Source of the DNA: Candidatus Hodarchaeota archaeon
GTDB lineage: Archaea > Asgardarchaeota > Lokiarchaeia > Sigyniarchaeales > SOKP01
Assembly: GCA_048887225.1 (NCBI GenBank)
Contig: JBHLJY010000025.1
Location: 1,371-27,011, forward strand
Length of the DNA: 25,641 bases
Reading direction: 5' to 3'
The notes under the pieces were generated by a model. The model ran no database searches and was not told where the DNA came from. It saw nothing but the letters and a program-made list of their open reading frames with translations. Made by a program: the position numbers and the translations under genes. Each line of letters opens with the position of its first letter. Positions within the stretch are counted from its first letter, which is position 1. Below, piece after piece: positions 2 to 4,786 of the stretch.

Positions 2-1012
2 CCGTGTTCCAGAAGATCTTTTGGGAGTTTTTTTCTTGGCTGCTGGTTTTTTCTTGGCTGCTGGTTTTTTCTTGGCTGCTGGTTTTTTCTTGGCTATAGC
101 CTTCTTCATAGGAACACGCTTTTCTTTTATGGTTCTCTCGTCCTCCTTTTCCAATAATTCTATTGCTTCAACTATACCTCTTTTAGCGTCTGAATAAATT
201 CTCACTTTTTCATAATCTAACTCAATCATACCTTCGGGAACTTTTTCAACTTTGTCCCAAATAGTTTCTTGTATATTAGTAGTTTCACCATATAGCGTAT
301 GTCCCAAAATAAAGTTTCGTCGTTTATAACCTTTAGGAACTTCAGTTTTAAGAATTTTATCTTTAATTCTATTTTCTTGCTCTACTGTAAGTTCCATTTC
401 TATTGTTGATGTTATTGAAGATTTCCGAATGGGAGGTGAAACAGATCGGTGAGTAGTAGATAGTGAAGTTACAGGTTTAGATACAGAACTTATAGGAGGA
501 ATAGCTATTTTTGGCTTTTGATCTTGTATTTTTGAGGGTGTAATGATTTCTTCTTCTATTTTCTCCACTTTAACAAATTTTGGACCCTCATCGGGTATAA
601 TACCAGCTTCCAACATCTTTTCTCGATCGATGTTGCGTATGTATCGCATATCTGCCAGTTTTTCTGTAACTGGCATAGAAGTAAAATGAAATGTGTTTAA
701 AAACTCCTCTACTTCATCGCCTTGATCTACAGAGACTATCTTGCATCGATGGAATGATGCTTGTTGAACTAATTCGTCTTGAAGCTGACTTGCTACTCGA
801 GAACTTATAAAGCGTTTTCGAACAGCCGATTTTGAACCTTTCCAAATATATATTCTTCTTATATCCTCTTTTACTATGACCGCAACCTGTTCTGGGTGCA
901 AGACATTCATTCCATTATTTTCGCGAAATTCTCCTTCTGTTACATCTAATCTAATTCTTTCGCCAGAATCATCGAGCTCATAGACCATAAAATTTTTGTA
1001 GGCTTCGGTCAT
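2..1012 (-). CDS. Gelsolin-domain protein: one gelsolin fold, S/T/P linker, second unknown globular domain and Lys/Ala/Pro tail; 3' end runs off the window
   Basis: Manual translation from ATG at 1012 (MTEAYKNFMVYELDDSGERIRL...) stays open to the window edge. It has gelsolin-like motifs 'VIVKEDIRRIYIWKGSKSAVRKRFISSRVASSLQDE' and 'KIVSVDQGDEVEEFLNTF' and ends '...AKKKPAAKKKPAAKKKPAAKKKTPKRSSGTR'. Absent from the ORF track, presumably because there is no stop codon in the window. Confidence 0.85.
   Translation of the reverse strand, partial: MTEAYKNFMVYELDDSGERIRLDVTEGEFRENNGMNVLHPEQVAVIVKEDIRRIYIWKGSKSAVRKRFISSRVASQLQDELVQQASFHRCKIVSVDQGDEVEEFLNTFHFTSMPVTEKLADMRYIRNIDREKMLEAGIIPDEGPKFVKVEKIEEEIITPSKIQDQKPKIAIPPISSVSKPVTSLSTTHRSVSPPIRKSSITSTIEMELTVEQENRIKDKILKTEVPKGYKRRNFILGHTLYGETTNIQETIWDKVEKVPEGMIELDYEKVRIYSDAKRGIVEAIELLEKEDERTIKEKRVPMKKAIAKKKPAAKKKPAAKKKPAAKKKTPKRSSGTR
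29..95. repeat. 18-bp tandem repeat (TTTTTTCTTGGCTGCTGG), ~3.7 copies, encoding AKKKPA on the minus strand
   Basis: Exact copies at 29-46, 47-64 and 65-82, plus a partial copy at 83-95. Confidence 0.95.
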
Positions 1013-1158: not shown

Positions 1159-1860
1159 CTAATGGTCATGCATAACATTATCTATACTCAGAACAAATCC
1201 CAGAAGAATTCGTCTATCAGTTTCTTTATCTAAAATTCGGAGTGCATATGTATCTTTAAAATCAAACATTCCACCAAGGAATACGTCCCTCCAACGGTCA
1301 GCTTTCTCAATTTCAGCAACAATTTTTCCAGTTGATAAATCTTTTACTTTAAATGAGAATCCCATAAATTTTCCATCTGCTTCGTACCATCGATTCCCAT
1401 CAGGGTCGGTTAAAAAGAATTTTGGTTTAAATAATGTAAGAATCTTTTTCTTGATTCGTGCTATCATATTCCCTTCAGCATCCTTTAAAGTTTGAGCTCC
1501 GCGGGCACTTATTATTTTCTCATGTATTGTAGCTGATACGGTTCCATCAACCTCGCATAATTCAATTTTTTTTCTGATGCTAAAGATTTTCCGGTGCATT
1601 TTACCGATAATTTGACCCTTATCATCCAAAATATCACCGCTCCCCCAGTCCCAGTACTTTTCCTTTAGAACGTAATAAGTTCGGTTGATATCAAATAATC
1701 CTCCAGGAAAACTGTGTGGTACCTGTTGAGATGGTGCTGCTGTTAGACTTTCAGTTTTTTCTTCTTTTTCTTCTTTTATTATAGATAATTCAGTTCCGCA
1801 TTTTTCACAAAATTTTTGGTCAGATTTTCTAATTTCTACTCCACAATTTGGACAATGCAT
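1159..1860 (-). CDS. Zinc-ribbon + LURP-one/scramblase (Tubby C-terminal-like) family protein
   Basis: N-terminal CPNCG-x9-FCEKCG zinc ribbon. The C-terminal domain has repeated 'D-x-x-G-x-x-(I/V)-(G/A)-x-(I/M)' beta units and ends 'DTYALRI...DRRILLGFVLSID', typical of LURP-one/scramblase barrels. ATG at 1860 (MHCPNCG) is a more likely start than TTG at 1899. Confidence 0.8.
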   Translation of the reverse strand: MHCPNCGVEIRKSDQKFCEKCGTELSIIKEEKEEKTESLTAAPSQQVPHSFPGGLFDINRTYYVLKEKYWDWGSGDILDDKGQIIGKMHRKIFSIRKKIELCEVDGTVSATIHEKIISARGAQTLKDAEGNMIARIKKKILTLFKPKFFLTDPDGNRWYEADGKFMGFSFKVKDLSTGKIVAEIEKADRWRDVFLGGMFDFKDTYALRILDKETDRRILLGFVLSIDNVMHDH

Positions 1861-2046
1861 ATTTTTCTTACCACTCTTTTTCTTTTTAGAACATTGCAAA
1901 TAAATGATTTTTGATCAACAAAAGGGAATAATCTCTTTTAAATTTAAGCTAAGGAGAAAAAGGTATATTAAATTCTCTAGAAAATGTTATAATCAGAAAA
2001 TGTTTTAAATAAATAAATAAAACAAAATAAAAATTATTAGATTATA

Positions 2047-2820
2047 ATGACGAGTATTCCAAAACTTTTAAAACTAAAAGATTATATCACGCTAACAGGA
2101 ACAACTTTGGGAATACTAGCACTCATCTGCGCCTTAATGGGTTCAAGATTTTTTATCTCGTGGGGATTTTTTCTGATAACAATTTCCCTTGGTACAGATT
2201 TATTGGATGGTTATATAGCTCGTAAAACTGGAACACTAAATAAGTTTGGTATAGAATTAGATTCGCTCAGCGATTCCCTAACTTTTGGAATTGCACCTGC
2301 GGTTTTAATTTATCAAGCTTTTAGAACAGGTCAATTGTATGATTGTGTTCTAATGATTGGATGTATTTGTTTTGCTCTTGCTGCAATACTTAGATTGGCA
2401 AGATTTAATATAACAACCGAGAGTGAATTAGGTTATACAGGAGTTCCTACTCCAATGAGCTGTTTAACGATAATAGCATTTTTTTATGGAAATTACTTTT
2501 TCGCATTTGGTTTAGGTGGTATAAGTTATCCTTTTCCACTATTTTCTTACTATTTAATCCCAATTTTCATGATATTAATTGGATGGTTTAATATCACAAC
2601 TCATATTAGGTTTGGTGAAAAAAATAAAAATGTCTACATTATAGTCCTTATTCTCTCCCCAATTGCTCCTATTTTAGGAATCATAGGTCTAATGTCTCCC
2701 AATTTTGAGATTTCAATTGGCATTAGTCTTTTCTTTTTTGTATCTTTTTTTATTTTAATTATCTACTTTATAATAGGCTTTTTTTTGGAGCCTAAAAAAA
2801 AGATTGACGGTTCTACATAA
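2047..2820 (+). CDS. pssA: CDP-alcohol phosphatidyltransferase, PssA/archaetidylserine synthase-like
   Basis: Signature DLLDGYIARK-x6-GIELDSLSD, followed by the PssA-type 'FGIAPA' and 'LRLARFN...YTGVPTP' motifs; multiple TM helices. Confidence 0.8.
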   Translation: MTSIPKLLKLKDYITLTGTTLGILALICALMGSRFFISWGFFLITISLGTDLLDGYIARKTGTLNKFGIELDSLSDSLTFGIAPAVLIYQAFRTGQLYDCVLMIGCICFALAAILRLARFNITTESELGYTGVPTPMSCLTIIAFFYGNYFFAFGLGGISYPFPLFSYYLIPIFMILIGWFNITTHIRFGEKNKNVYIIVLILSPIAPILGIIGLMSPNFEISIGISLFFFVSFFILIIYFIIGFFLEPKKKIDGST

Positions 2821-2866
2821 TCAAAAAATCAGTATTTTAAAGAATCTTAATATTTCTTTTATCTTT

Positions 2867-4786
2867 TTATAATAATCTCATCTTAAATTCTTCTATTTCT
2901 TCAAATATTTCTTCTCTTTCCTTTTGACTAATAATAGGTGCCAATTGTTCTTTATATTTATTAATTAGACTTCTCATTTTATGCAACGTAACGGAAAAGC
3001 CTCTTTTCTCTAAAATAAGGTCAGCGATTTTTTGTAATTCGTTACTAAATTCTTCGCCTGTAGCTGTTTTTAATCTTTGAATTAATAAGTTAAACGCATT
3101 ATTAATTTGCATTCCTAATTCATCTCCAGGTTTTGGTTGAATATTTGATACAAAATTGTCTTGAGTTGATTCAGTTGTTTGCGTCTCAACAGAACCAACT
3201 GGAGATTCATAAGCAAATGGAATTTTTTGGGCTTCTGTTTTTTCAATATGGGGCATTTTCTGAGGTGGTACTTTTATTTTTGCGGATTTTTTTTTTTCGT
3301 TGGTCGATACTGTTTCACCACTCGCAGTAGCCCAAGTTGCTTCGAGTATGGGGGTTAATATGGTTATTAAAGGCTTGAAATTACTTCCAATACCAATAAA
3401 ATTCTCCAATGGGTTTTTTGAGTCCTTGTTGACTAAACAAATTATTATTTTATTATTATCTCCTTTCAGAGCAATTCGGTTCTCGTTTTGAATGTTCCTA
3501 AATTCTAAATTTTTTATATTCTTAAAGCTCTTCACCAAGCTATTCATGTGAGCGTCTGATGAGGCTATTTTGATTCTAAGATTTGTAGGAAGATTTTGAA
3601 ATTGTACAATATTTAAAAATTCTTCAATTTTAGGAATGATAAGTATAACTTCTCCTTTTGAATTAGTAATTATATTTGTAATTTCTTCTAATAATCTAGA
3701 TTTGCTTTTAATTAACCAAAGATCATCAATACTCATTTTTTCAGAATAGATGCTTTTATTTTCAAATTGGTGTATTATACTTTCCATAAGTTTGCTCAAT
3801 CCTGAAAATTGATTCATAGAATCATGAATAATAGAATCTATATTTTTTAATACAAGATTTTCTGCTTTTTGTAAATTACTTTTAAGGCTTTCCTTTTTCT
3901 TTACTATCATTTTCTGAAGTTTATTCATTATTGCCTCAAAATTACTTATTACATTTAGATATAATAATTTGAAATCGTTTACATATTGGAAGCTCTCTTT
4001 AATTTTAGTTTCAATTGGCTCTATGGTTATTTTTTCAATGCTCTCTTCAATTTTTTTAAATTCTTCTTGAATTGATTTTTTTAAATGTAAAATTAAATCT
4101 TCTAACCTCTTTTGTATCTCTGCTTTAAATAGATCTTCAATAATATTAATAACTTCCCCTTCCTTTTTCTTGAGTTCTACTACTTTTATTTTATCAATTA
4201 TGTTATATTTTAGTTTTGGTAGCTCTTTTAATAAAGTTGTAATTTGTGGAAGAAGAACACTCATAATGTTTTGATAGAAGGCTGGTATCATTTCTTTTAA
4301 TTCAGATAATATCTTTTCAGTTTCTTTAAATTTTTCAATGTCAGCTATAATTTCTTCGACATCCTGTTTTTGAATCAAGGCATCTTCTGAGAAATCATTA
4401 AAGATATCTTGAAATTGATTGTAAATGGAATCTATTTCAATTACTTCACTTTCCTCAAAAATCCGATCTAATGAATTTAACATCGATTTATGAATAATTT
4501 CTTGGATATTATTCAAATTAGAGGGAAGATTTAAATAATAATCTAAAATAGATTTAATTGGAGGAATAATCATATAGTGAACAAGAATTTCAGGTTTTCT
4601 TGGTGTTATTTGAACCATTAAATCATGATCAATAAGCTCATCAACAATATTTTTAAAATCATCAGGAGATAAATCAGAAACTAGGGAATATAATTCATTA
4701 TAAGTTAATGGTGATTTTAAGAAACATTCATTGTAAATTTTAATAGCTTCATCTGAGAGTTTTAGTTGTTTTAAAAATTCTTCCAT
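2867..4786 (-). CDS. TrmB-like winged-HTH protein with long helical/coiled-coil spacer, TrmB effector/PLD-like alpha-beta domain and small C-terminal helical domain
   Basis: N-terminus 'LKLSDEAIKIY...LTYNEL...IVDELIDHDLM...HYMIIPP' matches the TrmB HTH pattern. About 270 aa of amphipathic helices follow, then 'LWLIKS...ITNIITNSKGEVILIIP', which resembles the start of the TrmB C-terminal domain. Confidence 0.6.
   Translation of the reverse strand: MEEFLKQLKLSDEAIKIYNECFLKSPLTYNELYSLVSDLSPDDFKNIVDELIDHDLMVQITPRKPEILVHYMIIPPIKSILDYYLNLPSNLNNIQEIIHKSMLNSLDRIFEESEVIEIDSIYNQFQDIFNDFSEDALIQKQDVEEIIADIEKFKETEKILSELKEMIPAFYQNIMSVLLPQITTLLKELPKLKYNIIDKIKVVELKKKEGEVINIIEDLFKAEIQKRLEDLILHLKKSIQEEFKKIEESIEKITIEPIETKIKESFQYVNDFKLLYLNVISNFEAIMNKLQKMIVKKKESLKSNLQKAENLVLKNIDSIIHDSMNQFSGLSKLMESIIHQFENKSIYSEKMSIDDLWLIKSKSRLLEEITNIITNSKGEVILIIPKIEEFLNIVQFQNLPTNLRIKIASSDAHMNSLVKSFKNIKNLEFRNIQNENRIALKGDNNKIIICLVNKDSKNPLENFIGIGSNFKPLITILTPILEATWATASGETVSTNEKKKSAKIKVPPQKMPHIEKTEAQKIPFAYESPVGSVETQTTESTQDNFVSNIQPKPGDELGMQINNAFNLLIQRLKTATGEEFSNELQKIADLILEKRGFSVTLHKMRSLINKYKEQLAPIISQKEREEIFEEIEEFKMRLL

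Follow-up and report, generated by a model that had tools for sequence, protein, structure and literature searches.

The closest described relatives of the protein reported here are the 1DGelX proteins of Asgard archaea, in which a single gelsolin domain is followed by a 'domain X'. Akil et al. described and assayed this class in 2020 (PNAS, PMC7444086). Thor 1DGelX binds rabbit actin with a Kd of 7.7 µM, severs and nucleates independently of Ca2+, and was the most active Asgard gelsolin in that study (PMC7444086). At 4 µM it caused some bundling, and the authors hypothesised an actin side-binding element in its C-terminal extension (PMC7444086). When expressed in human U2OS cells, GFP-1DGelX was concentrated at nuclear-membrane/ER regions (PMC7444086). 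Lokiarchaeota are reported to have two to three genes of the 1DGelX type (PMC9433394). In a Lokiactin co-IP, five gelsolin homologs are enriched (PMC13716822). ProGel (7c2f) and the Asgard 2DGels (7c2g, 7c2h, 7whf and 7whg) have been solved in complex with actin. ProGel is a bare domain and the 2DGels are two Ca2+-binding gelsolin repeats; neither has a domain X, a basic tail or a terminal motif.

The window, which is the whole stretch of 25,641 nucleotides analysed, begins with a gene for a gelsolin-X protein (Table 1). We are confident that this is an actin-binding protein of the gelsolin-X class. It is very probably the ortholog, in Lokiarchaeia, of the 1DGelX actin regulators of Asgard archaea, and could work as a modular five-part tether. 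The open reading frame is real: it has an ATG start, runs off the window edge and contains, within its 337 amino acids, all of the peptides quoted in an earlier note on this DNA. In contig C25 the window begins immediately beyond a scaffold gap of 100 N. On its two sides this gap is flanked by 77 bp that are 100% identical, and it is therefore most likely a pair of overlapping contig ends, the assembly having broken in a repeat. Beyond the gap the frame continues with AKKKPAAKKKPAAKKKTPKRSSGTRKLPKIPKA and then stops, the protein ending ...GTRKLPKIPKA; the full protein would therefore have about 346 residues if the identical flanks overlap, with an uncertain number of repeats. Counts in a promoter and terminator scan were at the level of shuffled sequence.

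Table 1. Coordinates (in the window) of the gelsolin-X gene, its parts and its neighbours.
Feature	Position	Strand	Basis and remarks
Gelsolin-X protein ORF	2..1012	-	337 codons within the window; 3' end past the 100-N gap at contig C25:1168-1270 (L001), adding ...KLPKIPKA and a stop
Gelsolin-homology domain (residues 1-110)	683..1012	-	AF2, Foldseek, phmmer, family profile, invariant columns
Extension after the gelsolin domain (residues 111-137, SMPVTEKLADMRYIRNIDREKM)	602..682	-	Conserved columns; short strand and helix in the model
S/T/P-rich variable linker (residues ~138-205)	398..601	-	Low pLDDT; unalignable across orthologs
Domain X (residues ~206-292)	137..397	-	Model; one helix and a five-stranded antiparallel sheet
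Lysine-rich disordered tail (residues 293-337)	2..136	-	Composition, alignment; stands where most orthologs have a HeH/SAP domain
Exact 18-bp tandem repeat	29..95	-	3.7 copies, 100% identical, TRF score 134; encodes (AAKKKP)n
Zn-ribbon and LOR/scramblase-like (Tubby-fold) protein	1159..1899	-	Upstream neighbour, same strand; Pfam LOR 8.6e-12; context only
CDP-alcohol phosphatidyltransferase	2047..2820	+	Divergent neighbour; Pfam 9.3e-15; 6 of 6 other loci; context only

The N-terminal domain has the gelsolin fold, in which a central beta-sheet lies between a long and a short helix. Residues 1-135 are ordered in the AF2 model, with pLDDT mostly 83-97, falling to 69 in a block near residue 125. 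The top Foldseek match is ProGel from Thorarchaeota (7c2f_B; E 4.2e-6, TM 0.83, rmsd 2.7), followed by adseverin, gelsolin and villin. There are 88 PDB matches at E<=1e-3, and every top rank is a member of the gelsolin family. At the sequence level, phmmer matches the protein to 7c2f with an E-value of 3.6e-4. The family profile matches ProGel 7c2f at 2.2e-7, Asgard gelsolins at 2e-7 to 8e-4, and adseverin at 1.5e-3. With ProGel and the 2DGels the protein shares both the fold and the WxG-K-S/x motif before the long actin-binding helix. This helix (residues 64-84), the actin-contacting helix of gelsolins, is nearly invariant across 67 orthologs. Pfam PF00626 (Gelsolin) scores 15.8 bits on the window's protein, below the 21-bit cut-off, and is matched at E<0.01 in 36 of the 67 orthologs. 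Homologs go publicly under the names 'hypothetical protein', 'Rho termination factor N-terminal domain-containing protein' and 'HeH/LEM domain-containing protein'. The earlier note had proposed an unannotated gelsolin-like domain. Its assignment of the fold is borne out by the AF2 model, the ProGel match and the family profile; the word unannotated is fair in the sense that homologs are named, only not for gelsolin, and that the Pfam score here is sub-threshold.

HMMER alignments place ...SVDEK... of the Loki 2DGel opposite a VRKRF segment in the present protein, such that the acidic pair aligns with RK. The D and E of the 2DGel segment we take to be Ca2+ ligands of the type-2 site. In the alignments against Asgard 2DGels, acidic residues of this kind are absent from the start of the long helix in the window's protein, and R65 and R67 of the VRKRF segment are invariant in the family. 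Residues M113, D121, Y124, R126 and N127 of the extension that follows the gelsolin domain are also invariant, and a paralog on contig C4 keeps the extension too. By analogy with Thor 1DGelX, the gelsolin-fold domain and this invariant 25-residue extension would bind actin and would sever, cap or nucleate without calcium control.

The linker is disordered in the AF2 model (pLDDT <50 at residues ~160-205) and would be the second part of the tether, between the gelsolin extension and domain X. When folded alone, domain X is predicted by AF2 with a pLDDT of 83.9 and a pTM of 0.72. Comparison of the model with the PDB by Foldseek gave a best E-value of only 0.75. The best scores in a wide VIA-align search (Z 3.7, under the meaningful level) were to Cache/PAS/GAF-like sensors, a profile search against the PDB gave no match, and hhalign assigned a probability of 0.2% to a match with the family's own gelsolin domain. 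The modelled domain is without a detectable solved relative, which by itself does not prove a new fold. Matches in a structure atlas (TM 0.66-0.88) come exclusively from gelsolin-type clusters of Promethearchaeota, and 122 cluster representatives were found among 1.84 billion proteins. In full-length matches domain X is C-terminal, starting at about residues 150-240, and a gelsolin repeat was detected at E<=0.02 in five of ten sampled matches. The earlier note's separate, beta-rich second domain is thus upheld by the model and by the Foldseek and VIA searches, and it co-occurs only with gelsolin domains in Asgard archaea. Because it is confined to Asgard gelsolin proteins, it is very probably the published 'domain X' of the 1DGelX class. 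What was previously a blank after the gelsolin domain can now be described as a defined alpha+beta domain confined to gelsolin-X proteins. This Asgard-specific domain may form a second contact.

The protein has the architecture of the 1DGelX class, which is confined to Asgard archaea: one gelsolin domain with a non-gelsolin domain X behind it. Thorarchaeota-labelled members are present in the gelsolin-X family. As in Thor 1DGelX, the N-terminal gelsolin/cofilin domain is related to ProGel (~30% identity over 64 residues here, 35% reported there; PMC7444086), and acidic Ca-site residues are not seen. The mean length of the family, ~380 aa, also matches that of a protein running beside actin on gels (PMC7444086). 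The two descriptions differ in domain X, which I-TASSER rendered as a coiled coil (PMC7444086) and which is here a confident helix plus five-stranded sheet. These features and the published description suggest orthology with the assayed 1DGelX of Thor SMTZ1-83. The 2020 paper makes no mention of a HeH/SAP domain, basic repeat tails, an RxLPx(I/V)P motif or a conserved locus (PMC7444086).

All 19 of the high-quality genomes from the same taxonomic family yielded an ortholog. The same locus is found in six other Asgard genomes, where it comprises, in this order, a ~650-aa protein, the CDP-OH transferase, at some loci the LOR protein, gelsolin-X and, at some loci, a HEAT-repeat protein. The LOR neighbour is present at four of the six other loci examined in full, and also upstream of P0003 and P0004 on short flanks. 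The orthologs that keep this synteny are only 45-65% identical. We also considered, and rejected, a co-variation of the HEAT-repeat neighbour and the C-terminal motif: over seven loci the two show no correlation.

The region behind domain X is strongly basic in the window's protein, with 22 K/R and 5 D/E in 50 residues, and the tail is disordered in the AF2 model. The 18-bp unit reads TTTTTTCTTGGCTGCTGG on the plus strand and codes for AAKKKP; a second, partial array of 2.7 copies lies across the N gap. The earlier note had reported a polybasic tail of exact 18-bp repeats, likened it to histone H1 and AlgP, and suggested that its length is tuned by slippage. TRF finds the repeats as described. 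Variation in tail length is seen among near relatives, which differ by whole repeat units (AKRRPT occurs once in P0006, twice in P0005 and three times in P0002), and the assembly itself broke within the repeat. Slippage of this exact 18-bp unit may thus let the tail drift in length. The histone likeness is one of composition only. The tail has in common with the C-terminal domain of histone H1 and with Pseudomonas AlgP its K/A/P hexapeptide repeats, disorder and strong positive charge, but it lacks the winged-helix globular domain of H1, no homology was detected, and a Pfam scan of the window's protein at E<=10 returned neither a linker-histone nor an AlgP-type family nor any other for this region.

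Comparison of orthologs reveals what stands in this position elsewhere. In about 70% of those at the same syntenic locus, a HeH/SAP/Rho_N domain is found where the window's protein has its K/A/P tail, a replacement that is new in this analysis. By pattern, HeH, Rho_N, SAP or Ish1 lies between domain X and the C-terminal motif in 79 of 110 orthologs; with Pfam, such domains are detected in 30-32 of the 67 members aligned, and the hits in P0040 and P0074 (the latter HeH 30.3 bits, cut-off 28.9 bits) exceed the gathering cut-off. No HeH-clan profile matches the window's own protein. K/P/A-rich tails with a net charge of +9 to +22 are present in 20 of the 110 orthologs, P0024 carries a long K/P/A stretch plus HeH, and in some orthologs a second domain X fills the position. 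Because about 10% have a short, neutral or acidic spacer there instead, not every member of the family has a polyanion-binding module. On a tree from which the tail columns were left out, the basic-tail state requires seven changes, and well-supported branches force at least four of these; basic tails thus arose independently at least four times in the family. Given these origins and the occurrence of a comparable basic stretch in only 3 of the 2605 ORFs of at least 120 aa in the genome, the tail is not a matter of general compositional drift. The norm for the family's core gene is thus a DNA-binding-type HeH/SAP domain at its end, and histone-H1-like lysine repeats have repeatedly taken the place of that domain. 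The HeH/SAP-type domains seen here are presumed nucleic-acid binders. Heh1/Heh2/Src1, LEM2/MAN1, SAF-A and the Rho N-terminal domain resemble the HeH/Rho_N/SAP/Ish1 domain of most orthologs and not the window's protein; the eukaryotic HeH/LEM/SAP proteins lack gelsolin domains and belong to membranes or the nuclear matrix. No mention of an Asgard gelsolin together with HeH, LEM or SAP was found in the literature searched.

The (AAKKKP)n tail would be an electrostatic polyanion-binding module, a role for which the HeH/SAP/Rho_N domain at the same position in orthologs provides indirect support. Nucleic acid is favoured as its ligand because the tail replaced, in this lineage, the HeH/SAP-type module that most orthologs have, so that DNA or RNA (the nucleoid) may be preferred. 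Taken whole, a tether of actin to nucleic acid has in our estimate a probability of roughly 0.4 to 0.45. If it holds, actin dynamics in these Asgard archaea would be tied physically to the nucleoid or some other polyanionic surface.

The same charge could serve other surfaces. Lysine-only repeats are typical electrostatic lipid binders, and a polylysine tail binds any polyanion, acidic lipids and F-actin included. The tail could accordingly hold the protein to acidic archaeal phospholipids, as in MARCKS, K-Ras and PIP2-regulated gelsolins, with severing or capping placed at the membrane together with the neighbouring lipid genes. Those lipid-related neighbours are conserved at the other loci, and the nuclear-membrane/ER position of GFP-1DGelX in U2OS cells (PMC7444086) fits as well. 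Nevertheless, the replaced module is of a type whose known relatives bind nucleic acid and not lipid, archaeal gene neighbourhood is weak evidence (the lipid-synthase gene is divergently transcribed), and the basic stretch has no amphipathic or hydrophobic anchor. We consider membrane attachment unlikely.

The repeats must be very young, because they are 100% identical at the DNA level, and their number differs among near relatives. These features, the short, neutral or acidic spacers of some orthologs, the loss of the sister clade's terminal motif behind a stop codon (below) and the deletion within domain X of this copy are consistent with a largely neutral, low-complexity spacer that followed HeH loss, is driven by slippage and has no specific ligand, its length acting as a leash for a docking peptide. 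Such a spacer is distinctly improbable in view of the repeated origin of similar tails, always with strong positive charge, and of their rarity in the genome. Polycations bundle F-actin. It is nonetheless quite improbable that the tail promotes severing or bundling from the acidic side of F-actin, as the side-binding hypothesis of Akil et al. and the bundling by 1DGelX might suggest (PMC7444086), since severing should be a core activity, whereas the tail is the least conserved part and its place is taken in most orthologs by HeH, another copy of domain X or an acidic spacer. A second actin contact would more plausibly be made by domain X or by the invariant extension.

The nucleic-acid tether would be completed by its fifth part, a terminal RKLPKIP peptide that may dock the protein to a putative partner. 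The family C-terminus has the form R-x-L-P-x-(I/V)-P, a motif that is new in this analysis. Of 120 homologs, 106 carry LPx(I/V)P no more than 8 residues from their end; its L and both prolines are invariant, and the R at -2 is kept in 90% or more. In the window's protein LPKIP stands 3 residues from the C-terminus, just outside the window. Gelsolin-X family proteins are thus closed by an invariant proline peptide, putatively for docking. RKLPKIP fits the MIM2 core phi-P-x-phi-P (as defined in PMC8970359) and the class I SH3 pattern RxxPxxP. Like the MIM2 of ESCRT-III (PMC8970359), it stands at the end of a flexible tail, but its carrier is not an ESCRT-III protein. MIT domains are present in at least six proteins of the genome, Vps4 included; others lie at C14:16767, C1:403310 and C2:242123. 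Complex prediction for the Vps4 MIT domain and the C-terminal 33 residues gave a score of 0.09, against a mark of 0.32, which speaks in neither direction on binding. SH3_1, SH3_2 and SH3_9 had no match at E<=0.1 in this 98%-complete genome, and control genomes were matched weakly or not.

It is very improbable that the family is an Asgard adaptor in which the severing or capping of actin filaments is joined to chromatin, by way of HeH/SAP or an H1-like lysine tail, and to ESCRT, by a C-terminal MIM2 that docks to Vps4 or another MIT protein. Were it one, it would be a prokaryotic forerunner of the connection of nuclear-envelope HeH/LEM proteins with ESCRT-III and chromatin, with actin added. 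The motif was also considered as a common C-terminal signal in the genome, and this was rejected, the sole ORF ending in this way being gelsolin-X. Internal R-x-L-P-x-I-P occurs in four other ORFs, which by a rough estimate is about the chance expectation.

In a sister clade the C-terminal motif is lost through a stop codon and is decaying behind it. The motif-like peptide in frame after this stop raised the possibility of programmed read-through, which was rejected: in other members the stop is doubled and the invariant prolines are gone. The window's copy itself looks derived: its branch is long, and after LYGETT its domain X has a unique deletion of 8 residues, with which three nearly invariant columns (K, V and G) are lost. 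Because of these derived features and the sister clade's loss of the motif, the C-terminal region may be under relaxed constraint in this lineage.

Members of the gelsolin-X family, to which the window's protein belongs, differ between domain X and the C-terminus. Most orthologs have a helix-extension-helix domain there (scored as HeH/LEM, Rho_N, SAP or Ish1; Pfam detects it in 30-32 of 67 members and a pattern search in 79 of 110), which in homologs P0074 and P0040 passes the Pfam gathering cut-off. A K/P/A-rich tail with a net charge of +9 to +22 over 31-78 residues is present in 20 of the 110, as it is in the window's protein; in a few others a short or acidic spacer stands there. One small, well supported clade (P0087, P0100, P0103, P0113; loci L070, L073, L076-L078) has a tandem duplicate of domain X in place of the HeH domain or basic tail, and keeps the terminal motif LPx(I/V)P. 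On a maximum-likelihood tree computed without the tail columns, the basic-tail state requires seven changes, at least four of them being forced by well supported branches. P0024 carries a long K/P/A stretch and an HeH domain together, and the distant domain-X proteins P0147 and P0155 likewise end in HeH/SAP. The tree itself gives no direction, but these patterns suggest that lysine repeats took the place of an older HeH domain several times.

The tail is lineage-specific in sequence and recurrent in kind. Near relatives differ in the number of AKRRPT hexapeptides (one in P0006, two in P0005, three in P0002), and a comparable K/P/A stretch is found in 3 of 2605 ORFs of at least 120 aa in the genome, the only two others being C1:809-1546 and C2:26040-29048 (e.g. 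PKKPKVKKPAKKKPAKKKPATKK). The earlier note had likened the tail to histone H1 and AlgP and proposed that the protein could link actin filaments to DNA or acidic membranes, or bundle them. By Pfam scan the likeness is compositional only, but the DNA or polyanion idea gains indirect support, since the tail occupies the position of an ortholog domain that is related to nucleic-acid binders. The exact 18-bp repeat was recovered by Tandem Repeats Finder (window 29-95, 3.7 copies, 100% matches); ORFs on the opposite strand across this stretch are merely the repeat's mirror image.

The window spans C25:1371-27011. A run of 100 N (C25:1271-1370, in locus L001) lies directly left of window base 1, inside the coding repeat, and the 77 bases flanking it on each side are identical. 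The 404-aa ORF as deposited, 34 residues of it X, is therefore probably artificial, produced by the overlap of two contig ends. Beyond the gap the same frame continues with AKKKPAAKKKPAAKKKTPKRSSGTRKLPKIPKA and then a stop. Most simply, the contigs broke within the repeat and their two ends overlap across the gap, which would give a protein of about 346 aa with the C-terminus ...TPKRSSGTRKLPKIPKA, the number of repeat units not being fixed.

Coordinates of the gelsolin-X gene, its locus, other gelsolin-domain genes of the same genome, and remnants of the terminal motif in the sister clade
Feature	Location	Strand	Remarks
Gelsolin-X ORF	window 2..1012	-	337 codons, ATG start, open at window edge
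Conserved gene order	window 1159-4786 + L001:464-1072		~650-aa Asgard-specific protein, CDP-alcohol phosphatidyltransferase, usually Zn-ribbon/LOR (scramblase-like), gelsolin-X, often HEAT-repeat/Zn-ribbon
Gelsolin-domain gene	C3:231704-232456		diverged domain X
Gelsolin-domain gene	C3:178536-179183		diverged domain X
Gelsolin-domain gene	C4:122468-123406		same N-domain + DMRY(L)RN extension, different C-terminal domain
Gelsolin-domain gene	C2:165883-166881		2DGel ending in zinc ribbon
Sister-clade motif remnants	L056:2377-2560; L085:1301-1525; L087:936-1154; L086:1331-1474		KRKLPNFPSSED, IRKLPNFASSKD, KRKLLKISSSED or further stops

More than 460 proteins make up the family, every labelled one Asgard, and each of 19 high-quality genomes from the same taxonomic family has an ortholog. 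Six further loci have the gene order of the window, which is thus found in seven Asgard genomes and indicates that these are true orthologs. Among members of the two Atlas clusters nearest to the ~650-aa neighbour, between a quarter and a third show a TrmB-like helix-turn-helix, which is a lead only.

Several analyses agree that the N-terminal domain has the gelsolin fold, as had been proposed from motifs. Pfam Gelsolin by itself is sub-threshold (15.8 bits vs 21). By phmmer the protein matches Thorarchaeota ProGel (7c2f, E 3.6e-4) and the Loki, Thor and Heimdall 2DGels among PDB sequences; with a 67-ortholog profile the match improves to E 2.2e-7 and adseverin and CapG are reached too. Residues 1-120 of the AlphaFold2 model have pLDDT 83-97. 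Foldseek ranks 7c2f_B first (E 4.2e-6, TM 0.83 by target, rmsd 2.7 Å); dozens of domains from gelsolin, adseverin, villin and fragmin come next. The long helix, which touches actin in solved gelsolin-actin complexes, is near-invariant across the family (V64, R65, R67, F68, I69, S70, S71, A74, Q78, E80). Equally invariant is a 25-residue extension after the gelsolin domain (SMxVxEKLADMRYIRNIDRE), which is retained in the C4 paralog although the C-terminus of that protein differs. The SVDEK of calcium-binding 2DGels aligns with VRKRF in this family (R65 and R67 invariant), which fits the calcium independence reported for one-domain Asgard gelsolins (PMC7444086).

The earlier note could not tell whether the second domain is the previously named Asgard gelsolin 'domain X'. 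It very probably is the domain X of the 1DGelX class of Akil et al., and we infer from architecture, size and identity to ProGel that the protein corresponds to the assayed Thor 1DGelX. The architecture matches, Thor 1DGelX co-migrated with actin and the family averages ~380 aa, and the gelsolin domain is ~30% identical to ProGel, against 35% reported for 1DGelX. However, the published I-TASSER 'coiled coil' disagrees with our model of residues 203-293, which, folded alone from a 73-row alignment (pLDDT 83.9, pTM 0.72), consists of a helix and then five antiparallel strands. Comparison with solved structures gave no match (Foldseek best E 0.75, VIA-align best Z 3.7, PDB profile search empty). 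A cryptic gelsolin repeat was rejected by sequence (hhalign probability 0.2%). In the ESM Atlas the shape occurs in three Promethearchaeota clusters only (TM 0.88, 0.70, 0.66), one being the gelsolin-X family itself (Rho_N/SAP/HeH-bearing) and another named gelsolin-like. When 1.84 billion cluster representatives were searched exhaustively with a profile, domain X turned up in 122 proteins only; it begins at about residue 150-240 in full-length matches, and 5 of 10 sampled matches have a gelsolin repeat N-terminal to it (E≤0.02). The genome holds three domain-X genes, the window's and two on contig C3. Eight residues of domain X are missing from the window's copy alone (window ~290-300, residues 239-240), with the frame intact; they are present in every other aligned homolog and include three near-invariant columns (K, V, G).

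Of 120 homologs, 106 carry LPx(I/V)P no more than 8 residues from the C-terminus. Its L, P and P are invariant, the arginine two residues before L is at least 90% conserved, and the window's protein carries it past the gap (RKLPKIPKA). It matches the MIM2 core, phi-P-x-phi-P (PMC8970359). MIT domains occur in at least six proteins of the genome, including Vps4; a predicted complex of the Vps4 MIT domain with the protein's C-terminal 33 residues scored 0.09 against a mark of 0.32, a score that counts neither for nor against binding. The motif is compatible with the class I SH3-ligand pattern, RxxPxxP, too; three SH3 Pfam models (SH3_1, SH3_2, SH3_9) found no match at E≤0.1 in this 3.27-Mb, 98% complete genome, and gave weak signals or none in control genomes too.

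Because the class was already described, with an assay of one member, the gene does not represent a new kind. The literature searched contained no earlier description of the family's HeH/SAP domain or of lysine repeats replacing it repeatedly, nor of the invariant terminal motif, the domain X fold or the conserved locus. The protein begins with a domain of gelsolin fold, homologous to Asgard gelsolins solved with actin, and its invariant extension. A disordered linker leads to the alpha+beta domain private to the family; a cationic repeat tail then takes the HeH/SAP position, and a conserved proline motif closes the protein. The locus that encodes it is conserved. Thor 1DGelX binds actin with a Kd of 7.7 µM and severs and nucleates without Ca2+ (PMC7444086); by analogy, the N-terminal module would bind actin and sever, cap or nucleate without Ca2+. 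The tail may bind a polyanion, and the terminal peptide may dock a partner. We favour nucleic acid as the tail's ligand, because the tail is equivalent to HeH; the whole mechanism has a probability of about 0.4. The tail may instead bind membrane, as the neighbouring lipid genes and the localisation of GFP-1DGelX to the ER and nuclear membrane in human cells (PMC7444086) would suggest. It could also be a near-neutral spacer, given that the window's copy, which sits on a long branch and has the domain X deletion, looks derived. Direct binding of the tail to the side of F-actin is a further alternative.

In the sister clade (P0002-P0006, including a genome of the same genus) a stop codon now precedes the terminal motif, and in-frame remnants (LPNFP, LPNFA, LLKIS) or double stops follow it. 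Read-through was rejected, as the remnant is decaying; by its sequence, the clade is a case of recent motif loss through nonsense mutation. No other C-terminus in the genome was found to carry the motif. An internal R-(E/Q)-L-P-x-I-P, whose genome-wide count is by estimate about at chance level, occurs in apparently disordered regions of two proteins (C9:9550-10479 and C10:56479-56949); both end in zinc ribbons, and one of the motifs follows a transmembrane helix.
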